Positions 12,988-39,285 of a stretch of 64,000 nt of DNA are shown piece by piece (position 1 is the stretch's first letter; each line of letters starts with the position of its first letter). The stretch spans positions 21,453-85,452 of the forward strand of contig JAAXWW010000002.1 in assembly GCA_013334765.1 (NCBI GenBank), in the 5' to 3' direction. This stretch comes from Candidatus Moraniibacteriota bacterium. GTDB taxonomy: Bacteria > Patescibacteriota > Minisyncoccia > Moranbacterales > UBA2206. The translations under genes were made by a program, and so were the position numbers. The notes beneath the pieces are model-generated. The model made no database searches, was not told the origin of the DNA, and worked only from the letters and a program-made list of their open reading frames with translations.

Positions 12988-14253
12988 ATGCAAAAAAATA
13001 GAAAAACAAACCGAATATTTTTCTCCGGAATCGCGATGACTGGAATAGTCCTATCGGCGCTATATTTTTCAACATTCTCATTCGCAAATGCATCATTGTC
13101 TTTCAATTGCGATGACTATGAGGGAGACATGAAAGACGAATGCGAAGAGAAACAGAAAACTGCCAGGACACTGGAAAGCATAATAAAACTGAAGGAAAAA
13201 CAAGCCGATGTCATCACGACGCAGCTTGATACCATAAACAAGCAACAAGAAAAGAATGTTTCAGACCTTCAGCTTACAAAAAAAACGGTTGAGGATCTCG
13301 CAAGAAAAATAAACGATCTCGACCGCGACATAGCCGACAAAGAAAATCTCATACAGTCGCAAAAAAAACTTCTCACCGGGCTGATGCAGTCATACTATGA
13401 ATATGACCAGCAAGGAACCCTGGATGTTGTTTTGGCTGATCAGGATTTCTCGACGACCTTCGCCCAATCGGATAATATCGAACAGTCAGAAATGAAGGTC
13501 TCCGACATATTGAACACGATAAAGGAAGCCCGCCAGGAATTGCTCCAGGAAAAATCAGATATTTCCGAAAACAAAGAGAAACATTCCGAGATGAAAGAGA
13601 ATCTGGAAAAGAAAGGATTGGACCTCCAATATACCGAAGACCAGAAACAGAAACTGCTTGGACAGACCCAGGCTGAAAAAGAGAAATACGAAAAGCAATT
13701 GAATGATGTCCGCAATGAAATCTATGACCTGGAATCGAACAAAAGCGTTGACTATGGAAACATACCAGCAGCCAAGGGCGGATATTTCGATTATCCCGTT
13801 TCGAAGCCTTCCATAACCCAAAGCTACGGATGCTTGCAGAATTCATTCGCAAAAGCATCCTATCCGGCGTGCAACGGAGGGAAAGGAGGATTCCACAACG
13901 GATTCGATTTTGGAAGCAATAGCGGCTCGACGATATTCGCCGTAAAAAGCGGAAAGGTCATAGGTTCAGGAAACAATGGAAGATATGCCTATGGGCAATG
14001 GATTGCGATCGATCATGGCGACGGCCTAGTGACACTATACGGGCATCTAAGCAAAAAATACGTTTCAAAGGGCGATCAGGTCGATGACGGAGAAAAAATA
14101 GGAATCATGGGAAACACCGGTTATTCGACCGGAACCCATCTTCATTTTTCAGTTTTCGACAAAAAAAGCTTTGAAACCGTAGAATCAACTAAAGTCGATG
14201 GATTGATACTTCCGACTGGCGCCAGCGTGAGCCCGGGAAGATATTTGAAATAG
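12988..14253 (+). CDS. M23-family peptidoglycan endopeptidase with coiled-coil (EnvC-like)
   Basis: N-terminal TM, long coiled-coil, C-terminal LytM motif HNGFDFG...YGHL...GNTGYSTGTHLHFSV. Confidence 0.8.
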   Translation: MQKNRKTNRIFFSGIAMTGIVLSALYFSTFSFANASLSFNCDDYEGDMKDECEEKQKTARTLESIIKLKEKQADVITTQLDTINKQQEKNVSDLQLTKKTVEDLARKINDLDRDIADKENLIQSQKKLLTGLMQSYYEYDQQGTLDVVLADQDFSTTFAQSDNIEQSEMKVSDILNTIKEARQELLQEKSDISENKEKHSEMKENLEKKGLDLQYTEDQKQKLLGQTQAEKEKYEKQLNDVRNEIYDLESNKSVDYGNIPAAKGGYFDYPVSKPSITQSYGCLQNSFAKASYPACNGGKGGFHNGFDFGSNSGSTIFAVKSGKVIGSGNNGRYAYGQWIAIDHGDGLVTLYGHLSKKYVSKGDQVDDGEKIGIMGNTGYSTGTHLHFSVFDKKSFETVESTKVDGLILPTGASVSPGRYLK

Positions 14254-14385
14254 TTTCAAAATACCGAAAAAAACAATCAGCCTTCCCCTATCAAAAAACT
14301 AATTTCAAGAGGGGATAGCCAGACGGGAAATTCAAGACACATATACCCCCGATTGGTATTATCAAAACAGACCCAAAGAAACCAA

Positions 14386-14420
14386 ACAAGCGACTCCTTA
14401 ACCAATCGCTTGTTTTTTTT
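14386..14420 (+). terminator. putative terminator downstream of M23 peptidase gene
   Basis: 7-bp stem acaagcg / cgcttgt plus T8 run. Confidence 0.4.
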
Positions 14421-14891
14421 ATTTTCTAAAAAATATTATTTGCATGCACATAATTTTATTTCATATTTTTTATTTTCATCAAAATAATTTCAAGAAAATA
14501 TTTTTTCGAATCGATGATCGCTTTTTGTCCATTCATGTCATCGGATTCACAAAAACAATGATTCCTGAAAAATCATCAAAAAACGACCTCAAATTTTGAG
14601 CTCTAAGCGTCTTTGAAAAATATGGACATACATCTATGTATCTGTATTTGATCGATTCTGGAAAAAAATCAAAGCATTTTATTTTTGAAATAAAAAAAAA
14701 TAAAAAAATAATATAACGACAGCTAATAGGTTAAGAGTAGAGGAATGAAATAAAAAAATATTTTTTATTATCTGCGTATTAAAAAACAATCTGTTCTGAA
14801 AAAATAAAATACGGATAGGGAATAGCGGGTTCAAAAGACGCCGAGGCTCAAATAGGCGTATATATGGGAATAAGCCCTTTTTCTGAAATGC

Positions 14892-14925
14892 ACAGTGTCG
14901 TAAAAGATACATTGTGCGACACTGT
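14892..14925. repeat. perfect 9-bp inverted repeat (hairpin) in AT-rich island
   Basis: acagtgtcg ...16 nt... cgacactgt. Confidence 0.5.
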
Positions 14926-15112
14926 ATATATTTCCGCAGGGACAACTCCCCGCTTATTTTCTTCCTATTTTCGAACTCAATAATACCTTCGGAAATATTC
15001 TCCTCGCTCCTCTATTCCTCATATAAAAAAAGCGATTCAAAAAAAATAATACTCTTCTTCATCTATTCCTGCCTCCGTCTGTTATCCTCGTATTTTAAAT
15101 AGTTTTCTTTAT

Positions 15113-15141
15113 TTGACATAAATGTATTTTATGTTATAAAT
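15113..15141 (+). promoter_or_regulatory. sigma70-like promoter facing GC-rich segment
   Basis: TTGACA-16 nt-TATAAAT. Confidence 0.4.
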
Positions 15142-15142
15142 A

Positions 15143-15460
15143 ATAACTCTAAAAAAGCCGCCCGGTGAAATGATCTCCACTGGGCGACTATGAAATGTGC
15201 AAGGAACGGAGCGGGCCTATCTAGGCAGCTGCCTTCTCTCTCGCTAAGGGACAACCGTGCTCCGCTGAGCAGAGGATGACCTCGGCAGGATCGTTAGCCC
15301 GCAAGCATGGACACGCTCTCGGATTCCTGACCGGACATGGTTTTTTAGCGAGATTATCCCCATGAACATGGCCCACGGATTCCGATCCTTCCCTAATCAT
15401 ATGGCGTTACCCACCTTTTTAAAAGGTTTAATCCTCTTGACCAACAAAGCCAAGTTCCCT
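15143..15460. other. GC-rich structured non-coding segment, candidate ncRNA (identity and strand unresolved)
   Basis: About 300 nt at GC near 55% inside a segment at about 25% GC. No ORF. Multiple palindromes (ggcagctgcc). Bounded by a plus promoter and a minus terminator. A minus-strand promoter TTTACA-17-TACAAT lies at 15615-15643. Confidence 0.3.
15151..15188 (-). terminator. strong minus-strand rho-independent terminator
   Basis: 11-bp stem (gccgcccggtg / cactgggcgac, one G-U) followed by UUUUUU on the minus strand. Confidence 0.55.
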
Positions 15461-15664
15461 TCCATTATTGCCTCCATGTAGAGAGGCCTTCTCTACTGAA
15501 TAAATGGCCAGGAAACCGAAAACAAGCACAACGCAAAAGACTAGAGAAAGCAACATTGGGCAATTCCCTCGCTTGTTTATGTTGATATTTGTCAAGGACC
15601 GATTTAATTTCCGTATTGTAGCGCTTATATGGATTTATGTAAATAGCAGCGAAGTGATGGGGTG

Positions 15665-15693
15665 TTGACGATCTATTCGTATTATGATACATT
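15665..15693 (+). promoter_or_regulatory. promoter for small ORF
   Basis: TTGACG-17 nt-TACATT. Confidence 0.4.
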
Positions 15694-15721
15694 CTCAGGC
15701 TAGGCAAAAGGAGGCCGAGAG

Positions 15722-15871
15722 ATGAAAGGGATAATGTCCTATCTTTCAAGAGTTTTGGAATGGTGGCAGATAATAGCGTTATTATTGATAATAATCGTAA
15801 TACTACTGCCCCTCATCTGTTCATATTCCATATGGATCCACTCCATACTAATAAGAAACCTTTTCAATTAA
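15722..15871 (+). CDS. 49-aa hydrophobic small protein (MKGIMSYLSRVLEWWQIIALLLIIIVILLPLICSYSIWIHSILIRNLFN)
   Basis: AAAGGAGG Shine-Dalgarno 7 nt before ATG. Upstream promoter and downstream hairpin. Below the ORF-track size cut-off. Confidence 0.4.
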   Translation: MKGIMSYLSRVLEWWQIIALLLIIIVILLPLICSYSIWIHSILIRNLFN

Positions 15872-15905
15872 GCCGCTGCTCCCAAACGTGGGAACGGCGG
15901 CTTTT
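15872..15905 (+). terminator. putative terminator after small ORF
   Basis: Imperfect hairpin gccgctgctccca/aac/gtgggaacggcggc plus TTTT. Confidence 0.3.
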
Positions 15906-15938
15906 AATGTCGTGCTATGAATCTTCTTCAGATGAGAC

Positions 15939-16319
15939 TTATTTTTTCTTCCGATAATCCTCTATCGCCGCGTGCAATGCGTCGCTGGCCAGGTTGGAGC
16001 AATGCATCTTGATCGGTGGCAGTCCGCCAAGCGATTCGGCTACCGAATCCCTTGAGATTTTCATCGCTTCATCGATGGTTTTCCCTTTTGCCATATCAGT
16101 GACCATCGATGAGGTGGCAATCGCGCTGGCGCAGCCAAGGGTTTCGAACTTGATATCCGAAATGAACTCCCCTGCCGTCTTATCCTTCTTGACCTTGATA
16201 TATATCTTCATCAAATCGCCACAGACCGGATTCCCGACCATGCCGGTTCCGCTCGGGTTCTTGATGACGCCCTGATTATGAGGGCGCGTAAAATGCTCTA
16301 TGACTTTTCTTGAATACAT
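15939..16319 (-). CDS. nifU: Fe-S cluster assembly scaffold NifU/IscU
   Basis: NPVCGDLMKIYIKV, ETLGCASAIATSSM, MHCSNLA: three conserved Cys of the U-type scaffold. Confidence 0.85.
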   Translation of the reverse strand: MYSRKVIEHFTRPHNQGVIKNPSGTGMVGNPVCGDLMKIYIKVKKDKTAGEFISDIKFETLGCASAIATSSMVTDMAKGKTIDEAMKISRDSVAESLGGLPPIKMHCSNLASDALHAAIEDYRKKK

Positions 16320-21477: not shown

Positions 21478-22044
21478 TTATTGAACTTCATACATGCTGT
21501 TGTCGGCAAATCTTTCCTGCCAGCTTCTCAGCTCATCGAATATTCTATCGTCAAAATCATCCGGTTTGAATTTTAAGATGGCGTTGGCGTTCTTTACGCA
21601 GTGGTTTTTCAATTCATTCTCGTTGTTTTGGCTGGAATACCATTTGAAGCTGTCAATAATATCAGCCGTTTTGACAATGAGAGCGTCTTGCCCGTTTTGC
21701 ACGCATCTTTGAATCAGTTCATTCGTCTTTTCCATCTTGTCCGCAATCGTATCATCCTTAGTACTCGCAAAAACCAAGCGGACAACATTGTCACCGAATT
21801 CATCCCTTAATGATTGTTCCTCAACATCAGACCACTCGATTGCGTCGTGCAGAACGCCAGCCAAAACAATATCTTCCGAATAACCGTTTTCATACAAATA
21901 CACGCCGACGCGTATATCGTGGAACATCACAGGCTTTCTGCTGTTTTCATCCGACGGCGGCATATGTTCCGACAGAATCCGCACGGCTTTTTCAAATTTT
22001 ATGCTAAGTGATTTTGACATGAAGCATTCAATAGACTTTACCAC
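21478..22044 (-). CDS. HD-domain phosphohydrolase
   Basis: H...HD metal-binding motif (FHDIRVG...VLHDAIE). Confidence 0.6.
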   Translation of the reverse strand: MVKSIECFMSKSLSIKFEKAVRILSEHMPPSDENSRKPVMFHDIRVGVYLYENGYSEDIVLAGVLHDAIEWSDVEEQSLRDEFGDNVVRLVFASTKDDTIADKMEKTNELIQRCVQNGQDALIVKTADIIDSFKWYSSQNNENELKNHCVKNANAILKFKPDDFDDRIFDELRSWQERFADNSMYEVQ

Positions 22045-22357
22045 CCAATGGTATTTCTTTGTCAGGACTCAGTAATACGCATTCGTTTTCAGCATCGGGA
22101 ACACCCAGTGTAAGCACTTCAGAGATATTTTTGCCGATTTGCTTGGGTGGAAAATTGAGTATCCCAATGATGTTTTTGCCAATCAGCTCTTCGGTGGAAT
22201 AGTTTATCAACCTGGCGCATGATTGCTTTTGACCGATTTTTTCACCGAAATCTATAATGATTCTGTGTGTCGTATATTTGGCATTTTCGATCCGTTCCGC
22301 TTTAACTATCTTGCCTATTCTGACATCGATTTTACTAAACTCTTCGTATTGAATCAT
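22028..22357 (-). CDS. csaA: tRNA-binding protein (CsaA/Trbp111-like OB-fold)
   Basis: KIDVRIGKIVKAERI and LGVPDAENECVLLSPD are typical of the MetRS C-terminal-like tRNA-binding domain. Overlaps the HD gene by 17 nt. Confidence 0.7.
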   Translation of the reverse strand: MIQYEEFSKIDVRIGKIVKAERIENAKYTTHRIIIDFGEKIGQKQSCARLINYSTEELIGKNIIGILNFPPKQIGKNISEVLTLGVPDAENECVLLSPDKEIPLGGKVY

Positions 22358-22413
22358 ATGTTTTATGATGAAAAATTTGGTCGATAAAATTTTACTTTCC
22401 TTTTGAGCCGCAT

Positions 22414-22443
22414 ACTCAGTGTTGTCGGATGTAAAAATTCACT
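22414..22443 (-). repeat. conserved 3-prime-end element, copy 2 (cupin gene)
   Basis: tcagtgttgtcggatgtaaaaattcact. Confidence 0.4.
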
Positions 22444-22801
22444 TCTCATTCTTGTCTATCTTGTTGTTCGGTATGCTAGGAGTCCTTACGGAAACAGTAA
22501 TGGTTGGCTCATATACTTCGAGGATAGCTTCGGTTACATTGTTTCTCAGAAAAATAAAATCGCCATCGCTCAGTACGGAATCTTCACCATCCAACTGCCA
22601 CTTCAATTTTCCCTTGATGACAATGCAGACTTCCGTGCCATGCGGATGATAATGCGGCGGATAAGCATCACCGGGTTTCAGCGTGTCATACTTCACTTCC
22701 AGCTCAGAATTTTTTTGAATGGAATCATCAGGAAAAAACTGCCCGCAAAGCCAGCCTTTCGTTTCTGTATAATTTCTAACGTTATCAACCTTATATCTCA
22801 T
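22439..22801 (-). CDS. cupin-domain protein
   Basis: PPHYHPHGTEVCIVIKGK: cupin motif 1 with His ligands. Confidence 0.6.
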   Translation of the reverse strand: MRYKVDNVRNYTETKGWLCGQFFPDDSIQKNSELEVKYDTLKPGDAYPPHYHPHGTEVCIVIKGKLKWQLDGEDSVLSDGDFIFLRNNVTEAILEVYEPTITVSVRTPSIPNNKIDKNEK

Positions 22802-23049
22802 AGAAATGTGATAAATTACAGAACCGGATGTTTTATGTTAGGCGATGTAGCAAAAAATTTTATTCAACATAATTATAAAAAGCAAATTTAAAAAAGAAAA
22901 AGAATTTTATTTCACATAACGTATCCAAATATGAGAAGTTTTTGTCCGCTTCCTTATTATATATCAATAGAAGAAAAGGGCGAAAATTTGGGTTGAGAAA
23001 AATTTGCTTTCCTTGTTAATATAATTGTGCAAATTTTTTGAACCTCATA

Positions 23050-23092
23050 TTCGGTGTTGGACGATGTGAATAATATTTTTTAATTTTTCACT
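23050..23092 (-). repeat. conserved 3-prime-end element, copy 3 (P-loop kinase gene, more divergent)
   Basis: tcggtgttggacgatgtgaataat...ttcact. Confidence 0.35.
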
Positions 23093-23622
23093 TCATTATA
23101 AAATGCTATTTCTTTTTTCATTTGCTCGGCTATAATTTCAGGCTTAGCATGGGAAAATATTTTGATATCACCAAGCTCTTTATAAATCGGAAAGCGTTGA
23201 ATAAATTTTGTTTTTTCTCTGTCTTCCTTCAAGCCAAAGCCCCTTGAAAGTTGTCTTTTAACGACGATTTCCGCACTCTCATCTAAAGACTTTGATGGCA
23301 AAAGTAAAACGGAAATTCCTTGGTCTTTCAAAGTTTGTTTATGTTTCAAAGTTAGTTCATCCATATTCTCATGAATCAAAAATCCAGAGGACAGAGAAAA
23401 AACAAAATTTTCTAAATGTTGGCCCAAAATCTCATAGAATAACTTGGAGTTCTCGAGGCAATATTTTTCATAACCTAAGTTGTTGATATAAGTACCAACA
23501 TTTTCAACGCGTTTGCAAAATTCCAAATCTAAATCGATGAAATTATAGCCGAGCAAATTCGCTAAAATTTCTCCGCACGTTGACTTACCCACGCCACCTG
23601 GACCAATTATAAATATTTTCAT
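23080..23622 (-). CDS. P-loop NTPase, shikimate-kinase-like small kinase
   Basis: IIGPGGVGKST Walker A followed by DLD. AroK/gluconokinase-like size of 180 aa. Confidence 0.5.
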   Translation of the reverse strand: MKIFIIGPGGVGKSTCGEILANLLGYNFIDLDLEFCKRVENVGTYINNLGYEKYCLENSKLFYEILGQHLENFVFSLSSGFLIHENMDELTLKHKQTLKDQGISVLLLPSKSLDESAEIVVKRQLSRGFGLKEDREKTKFIQRFPIYKELGDIKIFSHAKPEIIAEQMKKEIAFYNEVKN

Positions 23623-23818
23623 AGCGGGAAAAAAGAAATAGCAATCATTAGAAGAAAAATTTAAAAATATTATTTATTTCGCCCAACTCTTTCATACGCG
23701 AAGTGTTTTCGCATATCATGCCCGACACCTCGCTAGTTCCAAAAATAACAGCTTAAATATAGCATAAAACAGACATAATAACCAACTTCGGCGGCTGAGC
23801 CTGGAAGCAAGGCTCCAA

Positions 23819-24961
23819 ATGCGATATACTGGGAATATGCGCATATCATATTCGTCATTCGAGACATATAACAACTGCCCCCTGAAATACAAGTTCCAGG
23901 AGATCGACAAGATCAGGACTCCAAAATCCAAGGAGGCCGTTTTCGGTTCCGTCATCCATGGAACCATGAAATTCATCCACACGCCCGGCATCCTCTCCCC
24001 CACCATGGAGCAGACCATGGAGCATTTCTCCAATTCATGGAACCCGGCCGTTTTCGATTCGGAACAGGAAGAACGTTCCGCCTTCGCGCAAGGCGTCAGG
24101 ATCATTCAGGACTACTATAAACGCAACCGGCCCGAAGATTTCAATATCGTCAATCTCGAGTCCCGCTTCGCCATCGAGATCGGAGAAGAGGGCGGAAAGC
24201 ATATCGTTTCCGGGATCATCGACCGCATCGACCGCACGGATGATGGCTTTGAGATCATCGACTACAAGACCGGCAAGAAGATGCCGACCCAGAAGGATAT
24301 CGACGAGAACGTCCAGCTGACCGTCTATTTGCAAGCCTTCCTTTCGCAATATCCCGAAGAAGCCAAAAACCTCAGCAAGCTCAAAGTCAGCCTATATTTC
24401 CTGAAGCACGGCGTGAAACTGAGCGCATTCCGAACCGAAGAGCAATTGAAAGCCAACGAGAAGATGTTCCTCGAGACCATAAAACTCATCGAGGAAGGCA
24501 AGTTCGAACCGAACATCTCGCCGCTTTGCGACTGGTGCGGCTATCAGAAGAACTGTCCGATGTGGAAACACAAATTCAAAGAAGAAAGGAAAATCGACAC
24601 CGAAGAAATCAACTCTTCCATCCAGGAATATATCGACTTGAAATCCGCCATGACCATCACCAAGGAAAGGCTCGGCAAGCTTCAGGAAGATATCATGCAG
24701 TATATGGAGCAGGAGGAAGTGGAAAGGGTCTTCAGCGAGAACGGCATCGTCTCGAAGACGCTCCGGAAGACATATAAATATGACGACGCCAAGATAAAGG
24801 AACTGCTTGAGCCGATCGGGAAATGGAAGGATGTCCTCAAACTCGATCCGACAGCCCTCAAGAATATCTTTCCCGTGCTTCCCGGCGCCGTCCAGCGGGA
24901 AATCGAAAAAGCCAAAGTCATCGACAAGGAAAGCGCCAGCTTGAATGTGAGGAAGAAATAG
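23819..24961 (+). CDS. Cas4-like / RecB-family PD-(D/E)XK nuclease with Fe-S cysteines and a roughly 130-aa C-terminal extension
   Basis: N-terminal Cys (YNNCPLKY). Catalytic core IIDRIDR...EIIDYKTGK...QLTVY. C-terminal CDWCGYQKNC three-Cys cluster. Confidence 0.6.
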   Translation: MRYTGNMRISYSSFETYNNCPLKYKFQEIDKIRTPKSKEAVFGSVIHGTMKFIHTPGILSPTMEQTMEHFSNSWNPAVFDSEQEERSAFAQGVRIIQDYYKRNRPEDFNIVNLESRFAIEIGEEGGKHIVSGIIDRIDRTDDGFEIIDYKTGKKMPTQKDIDENVQLTVYLQAFLSQYPEEAKNLSKLKVSLYFLKHGVKLSAFRTEEQLKANEKMFLETIKLIEEGKFEPNISPLCDWCGYQKNCPMWKHKFKEERKIDTEEINSSIQEYIDLKSAMTITKERLGKLQEDIMQYMEQEEVERVFSENGIVSKTLRKTYKYDDAKIKELLEPIGKWKDVLKLDPTALKNIFPVLPGAVQREIEKAKVIDKESASLNVRKK

Positions 24962-37538: not shown

Positions 37539-38822
37539 ATGGAAAAAAACATGAAGAAAACCGTCTGCGTGATCGGCCTGGGATATGTCGGGCTTCCGAT
37601 AGCAGTCAGAAGCGTCGAGAAAGGATATGACGTTATCGGTTATGAGCTTTCGAAAGAAAAGGTGGACATGATAAACAAAGGGAAGAGTCCGATCGAGGAA
37701 AAATACCTCGATGACAACATGCAGAAATTCCCAGTGAAAGCATCGACGGACGAAAAGGTCATCAAGAAAGCCGACATAACCCTTATCTGCGTCCCGACTC
37801 CGGTCGATGAGTTCTATAACCCCGACCTCTCTCCGGTGATCGGAGCAACCGAAGCGATCATCCGCAATCTCAAGAAAGGATCTTTGGTTGTCCTTGAATC
37901 GACCGTGAACCCTGGCGTTTCAGAAGAAGTTTTGAAACCGATGTTCGAAGCTGCCGGATACAAAGTCGGCACGGATGTCTTCATCGCCCACTGTCCGGAA
38001 AGGATCAACCCGGGAGACCCGAAATGGAACGTTTCCAATATTCCAAGAGTGGTCGGATCATTCGACAAGAAAGGATTGGATGCGGCTGTCGAATATTATA
38101 GGAACATCACTACCGGAGAAGTGCGCCCGATGAAATCCATCCGCGAAGCCGAAGCAGTCAAGATCCTGGAAAATTCTTTCCGCGATATCAATTTGGCTTT
38201 CGTCAACGAAGTGGCGAGATCGTTCAATATCCTCGGGATCGATGTGAAAGACGTGATTGCCGGTTCTGCCACCAAGCCGTTCGGATTCATGCCGTTCTAT
38301 CCTTCTTGCGGAGTCGGCGGACACTGCATTCCGGTCGATCCGTATTATCTCATCGAGCGCGCCAAGAAAGCCGGATTCGATCACAAGTTCCTGAGGCTAT
38401 CGAGGGAAATCAACAACTCCATGCCGGTATATGCCGTCGAGCTTCTGAAAGATGCTTTGAACGAAGTGAAATTGCCGCTCAATGGAACTGCGGTCGGAAT
38501 CATGGGCGTGGCATACAAGGCCAACATCGATGATGTGCGCGAATCGCCAGCTGTGAAGATCATGGAGCTGGTGAAGAAGGGCGGCGCCAAGATGAATGTC
38601 TTTGATCCGCATATTCCGAAATCATCGAATGTGAAAACGCTTGAAGAAATCCTCAAGAAATCGACAGCGCTCGTGATCGCCACCGATCATAACGAATTCA
38701 AGCTGATCGACCCGAAACTGTTCAAAAAACACGGCATCAAAGTCATCATCGACGGAAGGAACTGCCTGGACAAGAATGCCATCAAGAAACTGGGAATCGT
38801 TTATAAAGGGATCGGGAGATAG
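37539..38822 (+). CDS. UDP-sugar (UDP-glucose/UDP-ManNAc/GDP-mannose family) dehydrogenase
   Basis: VCVIGLGYVGLPIAV Rossmann motif. Catalytic Cys region GGHCIPVDP. Confidence 0.85.
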   Translation: MEKNMKKTVCVIGLGYVGLPIAVRSVEKGYDVIGYELSKEKVDMINKGKSPIEEKYLDDNMQKFPVKASTDEKVIKKADITLICVPTPVDEFYNPDLSPVIGATEAIIRNLKKGSLVVLESTVNPGVSEEVLKPMFEAAGYKVGTDVFIAHCPERINPGDPKWNVSNIPRVVGSFDKKGLDAAVEYYRNITTGEVRPMKSIREAEAVKILENSFRDINLAFVNEVARSFNILGIDVKDVIAGSATKPFGFMPFYPSCGVGGHCIPVDPYYLIERAKKAGFDHKFLRLSREINNSMPVYAVELLKDALNEVKLPLNGTAVGIMGVAYKANIDDVRESPAVKIMELVKKGGAKMNVFDPHIPKSSNVKTLEEILKKSTALVIATDHNEFKLIDPKLFKKHGIKVIIDGRNCLDKNAIKKLGIVYKGIGR

Positions 38823-38848
38823 ATATAGCTTATTACCGAAATAAAAAA

Positions 38849-38874
38849 AGAGAGGCTGGACCTCTCTTTTTTTA
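38849..38874 (+). terminator. rho-independent terminator
   Basis: agagagg-ctgga-cctctct plus TTTTTTT. Confidence 0.6.
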
Positions 38875-39216
38875 TTTCCCATGAATATATTTACCTTTTC
38901 TGCCTTGCCTTATCCAAGATAAGCAGTACCAGTATCAATATCAAGATTATGACAGAAAATCCAAACAATTCAATAACATTTTTTAATATCCCGAAAAAAA
39001 CAACGTCGCAATCCATTCCATCGCTCCCGGCATTATATTTTGTCCGATCATCCCTAAGAGGATAAATAGTAAAAAGGCCACAAGCATCAAAAAAACGTGT
39101 GGTTTTTCATCTTTTCTATTTCTGAATAAAACCACTTATTGATTTTCATTTTTGTTTTTTTATTTGTTACAATTTTTATGCTTTATATTATACCACATTT
39201 AAAGCTTATACATTAC

Positions 39217-39245
39217 TTGCCTTCCGGCCCCAAAAAAGGTATAAT
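39217..39245 (+). promoter_or_regulatory. putative promoter for 39286-40501 operon
   Basis: TTGCCT-17 nt-TATAAT. Confidence 0.4.
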
Positions 39246-39285
39246 CCGAGCATAATAATCCGAATACATAAAAAAACAAAAACAT

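Follow-up and report, generated by a model that had tools for sequence, protein, structure and literature searches.

In Escherichia coli, Bacillus subtilis, and most other bacteria, the recombinases XerC and XerD act at dif, a single-copy, intergenic, terminus-proximal site of 28 bp in which two 11-bp arms flank a 6-bp center (Kono et al. 2011, PMC3025954). The main survey of dif, which also reported that the dif-like sites of phages have degenerate arms, covers 16 phyla, none of them in the candidate phyla radiation (CPR) (PMC3025954). Systems that use one recombinase, such as archaeal XerA/dif, XerH/difH of Helicobacter (PMC3325230), and XerS/difSL of streptococci, have sites with near-palindromic arms. 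Integrative mobile elements exploiting Xer (IMEX), including CTXphi, VGJphi, and other filamentous phages, are found at dif. Inoviruses have been reported in CPR hosts in a paper that does not mention Xer (PMC6813254), and our literature search returned no description of a dif site in CPR/Patescibacteria. Here we describe a 28-bp element in a 64-kb stretch of the Candidatus Moraniibacteriota contig JAAXWW010000002.1 (hereafter the window, meaning this whole stretch). It lies in a long spacer without genes, and we predict that it is a dif-type Xer site, serving as the chromosome dimer-resolution site near the replication terminus, a reading to which we assign a probability of about 80%.

Results

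Sequence and conservation of the site

The element occupies positions 14895-14922 on the + strand and reads GTGTCGTAAAA-GATACA-TTGTGCGACAC, with two inverted 11-bp arms around an asymmetric 6-bp center (11-6-11). The arms are mirror images with a single-base difference: on the opposite strand, the right arm reads ATGTCGCACAA, compared with ATGTCGCAAAA on the left. Across the loci that we compared (designated by L numbers), the consensus is ATGTCGYAAAA-GATAYA-TTGTGCGACRT; a pattern for matching the site is ATGTCGYRAAAGATAYAWTGTGCGACRT. Counted by hand, 17 of the 28 bases agree with the dif site of E. coli, GGTGCGCATAATGTATATTATGTTAAAT, taken from the supplement of PMC3025954. The element has the two-arm architecture of Xer core sites (inverted arms of about 11 bp, a center of 6 to 8 bp, and a length of about 28 bp) but not the canonical XerC/XerD arm pair, because its outer right arm, GCGAC, mirrors the left arm, unlike the XerD consensus TTATGTnAAnT.

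A stretch of about 28 bp at this position is the sole conserved DNA in the corresponding gap across L001 to L006, whose proteins are about 65% identical. In L007 (63% GltX identity), a variant site at 15043-15070, ACGTCGCATAA-GTATCA-TTATGCGACAT, has arms that form a perfect palindrome, with the inner ATAA/TTAT of canonical dif. The perfect 9-bp hairpin that a first-pass annotation of the window had reported at 14892-14925 is indeed present as the inverted repeat ACAGTGTCG...CGACACTGT, which encloses the 28-bp site. Bases outside the 28-bp core pair at chance level in 119 distinct copies, and it is therefore the sequence and not a stem that is conserved, the 9-bp stem of the window being incidental. 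The 12-nt "loop" of this hairpin is as invariant as its "stem," and the information content of the aligned copies falls beyond 28 to 30 bp.

Four loci (L099, L120, L135, and L142) carry extra inverted copies of the left arm with part of the center (e.g., TATCTTTTACGACAT) 15 to 40 nt upstream of the full site, and two of these (L099 and L142) have additional right-arm copies as well, giving small half-site arrays. These arrays could be autoregulation sites of the recombinase or scars of aberrant recombination.

The site is single in the window even when 3 mismatches are allowed (0 expected by chance), and it is single within the 73.7 kb that was read from this genome. No other 28-mer or half-site in the window resembles it more closely than shuffled sequence does. 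We detected it in at least 143 further contigs, at least 120 from metagenomes and 23 viral, with one copy in each. The metagenome matches were found with a near-exact pattern, and the list of contigs is a lower bound. Seven of the site-bearing metagenome contigs are 0.47 to 0.97 Mb long (473 to 973 kb) and still have one copy each among the matches listed. The flanking DNA is unrelated between groups of loci.

Gene orientation and GC skew around the site

Of 126 loci, 124 have the site between genes. Its closest open reading frames (ORFs) are convergent in 46 of 71 loci and divergent in 5. GC skew was greater to the left of the site than to the right in 25 of the 29 loci with enough flanking sequence; it was positive on the left and negative on the right in 15 of the 29, with the reverse in 1. 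An excess of G over C on the left and of C over G on the right is already visible in the 120 noncoding nucleotides on each side. Across loci, the shift in skew and the convergence of genes are those of a replication terminus, with weaker support from the Moranbacteria genome itself.

In that genome, for which we extended the sequence 9.75 kb leftward, cumulative GC skew has a local maximum at 14.25 kb. It stays level across the 24.6 kb left of the site (mean skew, -0.003) and declines steadily across the 49 kb on the other side (mean skew, -0.051). Genes on the + strand have a top-strand skew of +0.040 left of the site and -0.060 right of it; for genes on the - strand, the values are -0.029 and -0.045. 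The skew in this genome agrees with a terminus but would not alone prove one.

Several short motifs recur near the site. The hexamer TTCCCT is present in 24 right flanks and in 0 left flanks (120 nt, 130 loci), with 9 occurrences on the opposite strand of left flanks, and CYYCCCTAT lies 25 to 60 nt from the site in many Parcubacteria-type loci. The bias in TTCCCT may be an effect of a C-rich strand, or it may reflect a real box. About 20 loci (e.g., L102, L110, L123, L148, L150, L166, L185, L190, and L200) share a box that contains the DnaA-box-like sequence TGTGGATAA; reading GTGTGGATAAC or GTGTGGAAAAC, it is located on the left, some 250 nt from the site. In several loci of this group, a direct repeat of the form GTTC-N7-GTTC, ATGTTCTATTTTTGTTCTAC, is found on the right side, some 350 nt from the site. 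Neighboring genes in the group include an ORF of about 300 to 330 amino acids (aa) beside murG that has no Pfam match and a TrwB/TraG-like ATPase of about 900 aa.

Prophages and recombinase genes next to the site

At seven loci (L150, L214, L216, L219, L221, L222, and L223), a hybrid copy lies 2.2 to 5.9 kb to the right of the intact site and in the same orientation; it combines an unrelated left arm with an identical center and right arm, GATATA-TTGTGCGAC. In six of the seven (L214, L216, L219, L221, L222, and L223, all contigs from viral collections), the two copies bracket inovirus-like prophages of 5.1 to 5.9 kb, located between the host murG and DUF3048 genes on contigs of 30 to 33% GC. 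Where the cargo was scanned, it included a Zot-like assembly ATPase and a rolling-circle Rep of the G2P type found in filamentous phages, together with a DUF2726 protein in L216; none of the prophage ORFs scanned matched an integrase. Read from sequence, an intact site paired with a hybrid one is the signature of elements predicted to integrate by means of the host Xer recombinase. The hybrid direct repeats at the seven loci are indirect, comparative evidence that the site is probably recombined.

A Xer-type recombinase gene adjoins the site in about 15% of loci. The commonest Pfam families of the nearest left ORF (88 loci) were Phage_int_SAM_1 (14), Phage_integrase (13), and Peptidase_M23 (12), and no integrase family was among the 25 commonest families of right-side neighbors. 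When ten left-side neighbors were tested with NCBIfam, nine proved to be Xer-type recombinases, and in eight the match covers the XerC/XerD models over their full length. Scores of the nine are about 130 to 260 bits for those models, below the equivalog cutoffs of 330 to 335, and 129 to 228 bits for archaeal XerA, for which the cutoff is 220. A distance of 211 to 588 bp separates these recombinase genes from the site, and their transcription runs away from it.

The spacer and its neighboring genes

The gene-free stretch around the site extends for 1.69 kb (14254-15938) from the stop codon of an M23 peptidase gene (+ strand, 14253) to the end of nifU (- strand, 15939), and it is the largest such gap within the window. 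It separates a gltX-M23 operon (+) from an iscR-nifS-nifU operon (-), and the two converge on it. The island is a noncoding spacer where two gene sets meet in a Candidatus Moranbacteria chromosome. In this respect the first-pass annotation, which had described a gene-free gap of about 1.7 kb without credible ORFs between these operons, was borne out: none of the ORFs inside 14254-15938 has a Pfam match or a homologue. It was also right that spacers elsewhere are mostly shorter than 150 nt, the runners-up being 436 and 246 nt. The AT content of 75 to 80% that it gave for 14420-15130 was too high, the actual values being 70.6% there and 73.0% over 14420-14890, but no 711-nt window in the 64 kb is lower in GC than 14420-15130. 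A GC-rich segment of some 300 nt does have raised GC, although the increase is modest, with 51.4% over 15150-15480 compared with a mean of 46.4% for the window; 10% of 331-nt windows are equally high. Elsewhere, a second low-GC stretch lies at 22000-24000 (GC, 0.36 to 0.37), and the 436-nt gap without genes is at 38822-39259. ARAGORN found neither tRNA nor tmRNA genes in the 64 kb. The contig is also present in the Logan assembly of SRR11449211.

The GltX protein of the window is 63 to 68% identical to those of Moranbacteria and Parcubacteria metagenome-assembled genomes. The gene order gltX-M23-gap-nifU-nifS-iscR is common to L001, L002, L004, L005, L006, and several metagenome contigs, with gaps ranging from 290 bp (L005 and L104) to 1.7 kb. 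Among the relatives, the gaps measure 290 bp to 1.3 kb; apart from the 28-bp site, the one thing that they have in common is a noncoding block, which is present in some of them. The first-pass annotation had envisaged that relatives might carry a normal gene here that is degraded in this genome; among the syntenic relatives, no gap holds a protein gene that could have decayed in the window.

In many loci, gltX and the gene for a coiled-coil M23 peptidase (12988-14253 in the window, with the M23 identity confirmed by Pfam) lie directly to the left of the site. The order of gltX, M23, and site is retained in more than 30 loci whose GltX is merely 33 to 40% identical to that of the window. The peptidase is possibly EnvC-like, to judge from its sequence. 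The linkage of gltX-M23 to the putative terminus site is unusually stable; a connection to cell division is speculation on our part.

To the left of the site, a hairpin block (CCUUCCCCU...AGAGGGGA; 14266-14315, + strand) follows the M23 stop codon. It is 92% identical to its counterpart in the closest relative, L172, has a folding energy of -11.8 kcal/mol (z, -3.3), and is probably a 3' untranslated region element of the gltX-M23 transcript. The intrinsic terminator of the gltX-M23 operon is at 14384-14425 (+), with a 10-bp stem, AAACAAGCGA/UCGCUUGUUU, followed by a U-run (-11.1 kcal/mol; z, -5.0), and L172 has an equivalent hairpin and T-run at that position.

Farther along is a conserved promoter-like noncoding block (14574-14676, +), which is about 90% identical to that of L172 and more conserved than the neighboring protein genes. 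It comprises an A-rich stretch, a -35-like element, TTGAGC (14596-14601), an A-rich -10-like region, and the palindrome ACATACAT-CT-ATGTATCT (14626-14643). The -35-like element reads TTGAGC or TTGACC across copies, and the palindrome is kept with some two-sided changes, as judged from 6 sequences only. Copies identified with nhmmer are in L002 (6690-6797), L003 (13467-13570), L006 (9646-9752), L101 (4699-4805), and L172 (8436-8539, - strand); the copy in L004 is inverted (13560-13621, - strand). The block is always 267 to 340 nt left of the site, and relatives with short spacers are without it. We rejected a structured RNA or a small protein as explanations for the block: the folds of 14574-14676 are not significant on either strand (z, 0.1 and 0.3), it contains no conserved ORF, and the fold of the 6-sequence alignment is weak. 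Its role could be that of a small transcription unit or an operator.

To the right of the site lies about 0.9 to 1 kb of lineage-specific DNA (14926-15869), on the side where prophages sit in other loci. The closest relative, L172, whose proteins are 81 to 90% identical, aligns up to 14931 and then continues into unrelated DNA, and in 11 other syntenic relatives only 56 to 206 bp separate the site from nifU; about 0.9 kb of the spacer is therefore strain specific. Searches for homologues of this region returned nothing by blastn against phages and plasmids, by blastn and tblastn against 223 loci, or by an exact 23-mer scan of viral contigs.

The region has its own transcription signals, including back-to-back promoter-like sites. 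An intrinsic terminator of a minus-strand transcript is at 15145-15185 (-), with a stem of 8 plus 5 bp followed by U6 (-20.2 kcal/mol; z, -4.5). Next to it is the orphan 51%-GC segment (15186-15480, -), which may be a structured RNA or belong to the 3' part of the minus-strand transcript. A 361-nt fold over this segment has an energy of -132 kcal/mol on the - strand (z, -3.0), and the z score on the + strand is -1.8. Rfam gave 0 matches on the whole 64 kb at the gathering score, and with E values of up to 10, it gave only chance-level matches on 14100-16100 and on a 541-nt slice (15120-15660). RNase P, tmRNA, signal recognition particle (SRP) RNA, and 6S RNA were considered for the segment and set aside; SRP-like strings could be picked out by eye but had no support from covariance models. 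A 59-aa ORF called there by the annotator, which NCBI labels a hypothetical protein of a Candidatus Moranbacteria metagenome-assembled genome, matched only itself among 5.8 billion proteins.

Two small hydrophobic ORFs complete the region. A possible 42-aa ORF (MLLSLVFCVVLVFGFLAIY...; 15428-15556, -), which we regard as a candidate gene, has a GAGGGA Shine-Dalgarno sequence and, upstream, a TTTACA-17-TACAAT promoter-like site at 15643-15615; tblastn found no relatives of it among the compared loci. The self-contained small-peptide gene that the first-pass annotation placed at the end of the spacer holds up (15665-15871, +): it has a TTGACG-17-TACATT promoter-like site, an AAAGGAGG Shine-Dalgarno sequence, a 49-aa hydrophobic ORF (15722-15871), and a terminator hairpin. 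The 49-aa ORF has no homologue in the collection of 5.8 billion proteins or in the compared loci and is uncalled in the public assembly. The hairpin (15870-15903, both strands) is strong, with energies of -23.6 (+) and -24.3 (-) kcal/mol and z scores of -3.8 and -5.2, and it can terminate both the transcript of the 49-aa ORF (+, where UUUU follows) and nifU (-).

Discussion

We propose that molecules of a host Xer-family tyrosine recombinase would bind both inverted 11-bp arms of the site and exchange strands across the 6-bp center, so that chromosome dimers would be resolved as replication ends, as at dif. The arms are near-perfect mirror images, and one recombinase species, as with XerA, XerH, or XerS, may thus serve both. 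Inovirus-like prophages without an integrase would exploit the same reaction, entering to the right of the site and leaving a hybrid copy, and the surrounding DNA would be an ordinary AT-rich spacer.

Several observations weigh against this proposal. None of the ten suitably sized ORFs in the window is a xer gene (all belong to other families), and none is present among the called genes of a further 10 kb or so to the left, which brings the genome covered to about 74 kb. The left flank in this genome is not clearly leading-strand-like, with a skew of about 0 and 41% of coding bases on the + strand. The identity of the core among metagenome matches is partly built in by the near-exact search pattern, the occurrence of the site once per contig holds for contigs among the matches listed and not for whole genomes, and the compared loci are phylogenetically nonindependent.

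Integration beside the site is what we observe directly, and this, along with the left flank's want of a clear leading-strand skew, would suit a dedicated attachment site (attB) for integrating elements that is used by a Xer-like recombinase and has no role in dimer resolution or at the terminus. We consider such a restricted role improbable. The site is equally conserved in most loci that are free of elements, including 290-bp spacers that hold nothing else (L005 and L104), and conservation this exact across deep lineages implies that a host function is needed; the scanned elements carry no recombinase of their own, and the statistics on convergent genes and skew favor a terminus. Harder still to credit is an RNA or DNA hairpin, such as a bidirectional terminator or the stem of a small RNA, or an operator of an ordinary dimeric transcription factor. 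The window does have its perfect stem, the C/T and A/G variants at positions 5 and 6 of the core would be G-U wobbles on the + strand, and terminators are expected between convergent genes. Set against these points are the chance-level pairing outside the core and the invariant loop, the separate, ordinary terminators of the flanking operons, and, for an operator, the lack of any downstream gene to regulate in 290-bp spacers. A hairpin or an operator would also leave unexplained the hybrid direct repeats that bracket prophages and the adjacent recombinase genes.

The first-pass annotation had offered several roles for the island as a whole, of which one associated with replication termination gains support from the dif-type site, the convergent genes, and the skew. 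The least credible alternative is a replication origin or a nucleoid-organizing hub, both of which it had also suggested. The island is AT rich with A/T tracts, and in some distant loci the TGTGGATAA box is about 250 nt from the site; yet the flanking genes converge, the skew is positive or flat on the left and changes with the polarity of a terminus, there is neither dnaA nor dnaN nearby and no cluster of DnaA boxes in the window's island, and neither the length nor the sequence of the spacer is conserved. A cluster of small RNAs finds no backing from Rfam or ARAGORN, although orphan transcription signals and one promoter-like block do exist. The idea of a mobile-element scar survives in part, for the lineage-specific 1 kb or so to the right of the site (14926-15869). 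This DNA may be a decayed IMEX that has lost its distal hybrid site, with the small hydrophobic ORFs left over from phage-type membrane proteins, a possibility that we hold tentatively and think somewhat unlikely. Every integrated element that we saw occupies this side of the site, and the DNA here is absent from the closest relative and from the short spacers of 11 others and has its own promoters and terminators alongside the two ORFs. No second site or half-site rises above chance, however, and searches of phages, plasmids, proteins, and loci gave no Zot, Rep, or other recognizable gene or homologue; a fast-evolving spacer with orphan ORFs accounts for the same facts. We see two readings of the right-hand DNA: rapidly turning-over filler close to the terminus, or what remains of an element that used the site for entry.

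If the predicted dif-type site is real, its 28-bp consensus would be a cheap terminus marker for curating and closing CPR genomes from metagenomes, and it would offer a precise handle for finding Xer-integrating prophages and other elements in uncultured bacteria, of which the six inovirus-like prophages are examples. It would also suggest that a symmetric site, possibly with just one recombinase, may be what these reduced genomes use to resolve dimers. The island in the window would then be a terminus spacer with one well-defined site and strain-specific DNA and not a mysterious hub.

A broader scenario can be sketched, which we think unlikely to hold in full. CPR/Patescibacteria might share a near-invariant, near-palindromic dif on which just one XerA-like recombinase acts; this would be a third single-Xer system in bacteria and one closer to the archaeal system. 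The right side of the site would be a landing pad for small elements without integrases, and the orphan 1 kb of the window, with a structured RNA of about 300 nt and two tiny membrane peptides, would be minimal cargo exploiting Xer. The conserved block on the left would be a gene for a terminus-linked regulatory RNA.

Compared with described systems, the site resembles XerC/XerD-dif in layout and setting: it is likewise 28 bp long, 11-6-11, intergenic, and terminus proximal by our prediction, with one copy per contig among the matches listed. Its left arm resembles the XerC arm (TCGCAAAA versus GCGCATAA), whereas its right arm mirrors the left (TTGTGCGAC) and the XerD arm of those systems is distinct (TTATGTTAAAT or TTATGTAAACT). 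The neighboring recombinases also differ from XerC and XerD, their scores of about 240 to 260 bits being under the NCBIfam equivalog cutoffs of 330 to 335. In its near-palindromic arms, the site is like those of XerA, XerH, and XerS. As in xerS/difSL and xerH/difH, about 15% of loci have the recombinase gene a few hundred base pairs downstream of the site, and several neighboring recombinases reach or nearly reach the archaeal XerA cutoff (213 to 228 versus 220 bits). Unlike in the single-recombinase systems, no recombinase gene is adjacent in this genome or in most loci. At 28 bp, the site has the length of XerCD and XerA sites; difSL is 31 bp, and difH is longer.

The prophages have much in common with IMEX, from the Zot-like ATPase, the rolling-circle Rep, and the lack of an integrase match to their position beside an intact site and the hybrid site at their far end, which keeps one arm and the center. 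They differ in that their hosts are uncultured bacteria of 30 to 33% GC, and the window itself carries no such element. We regard the site as an element of a well-known type, here in a new lineage, and not as a new mechanism.

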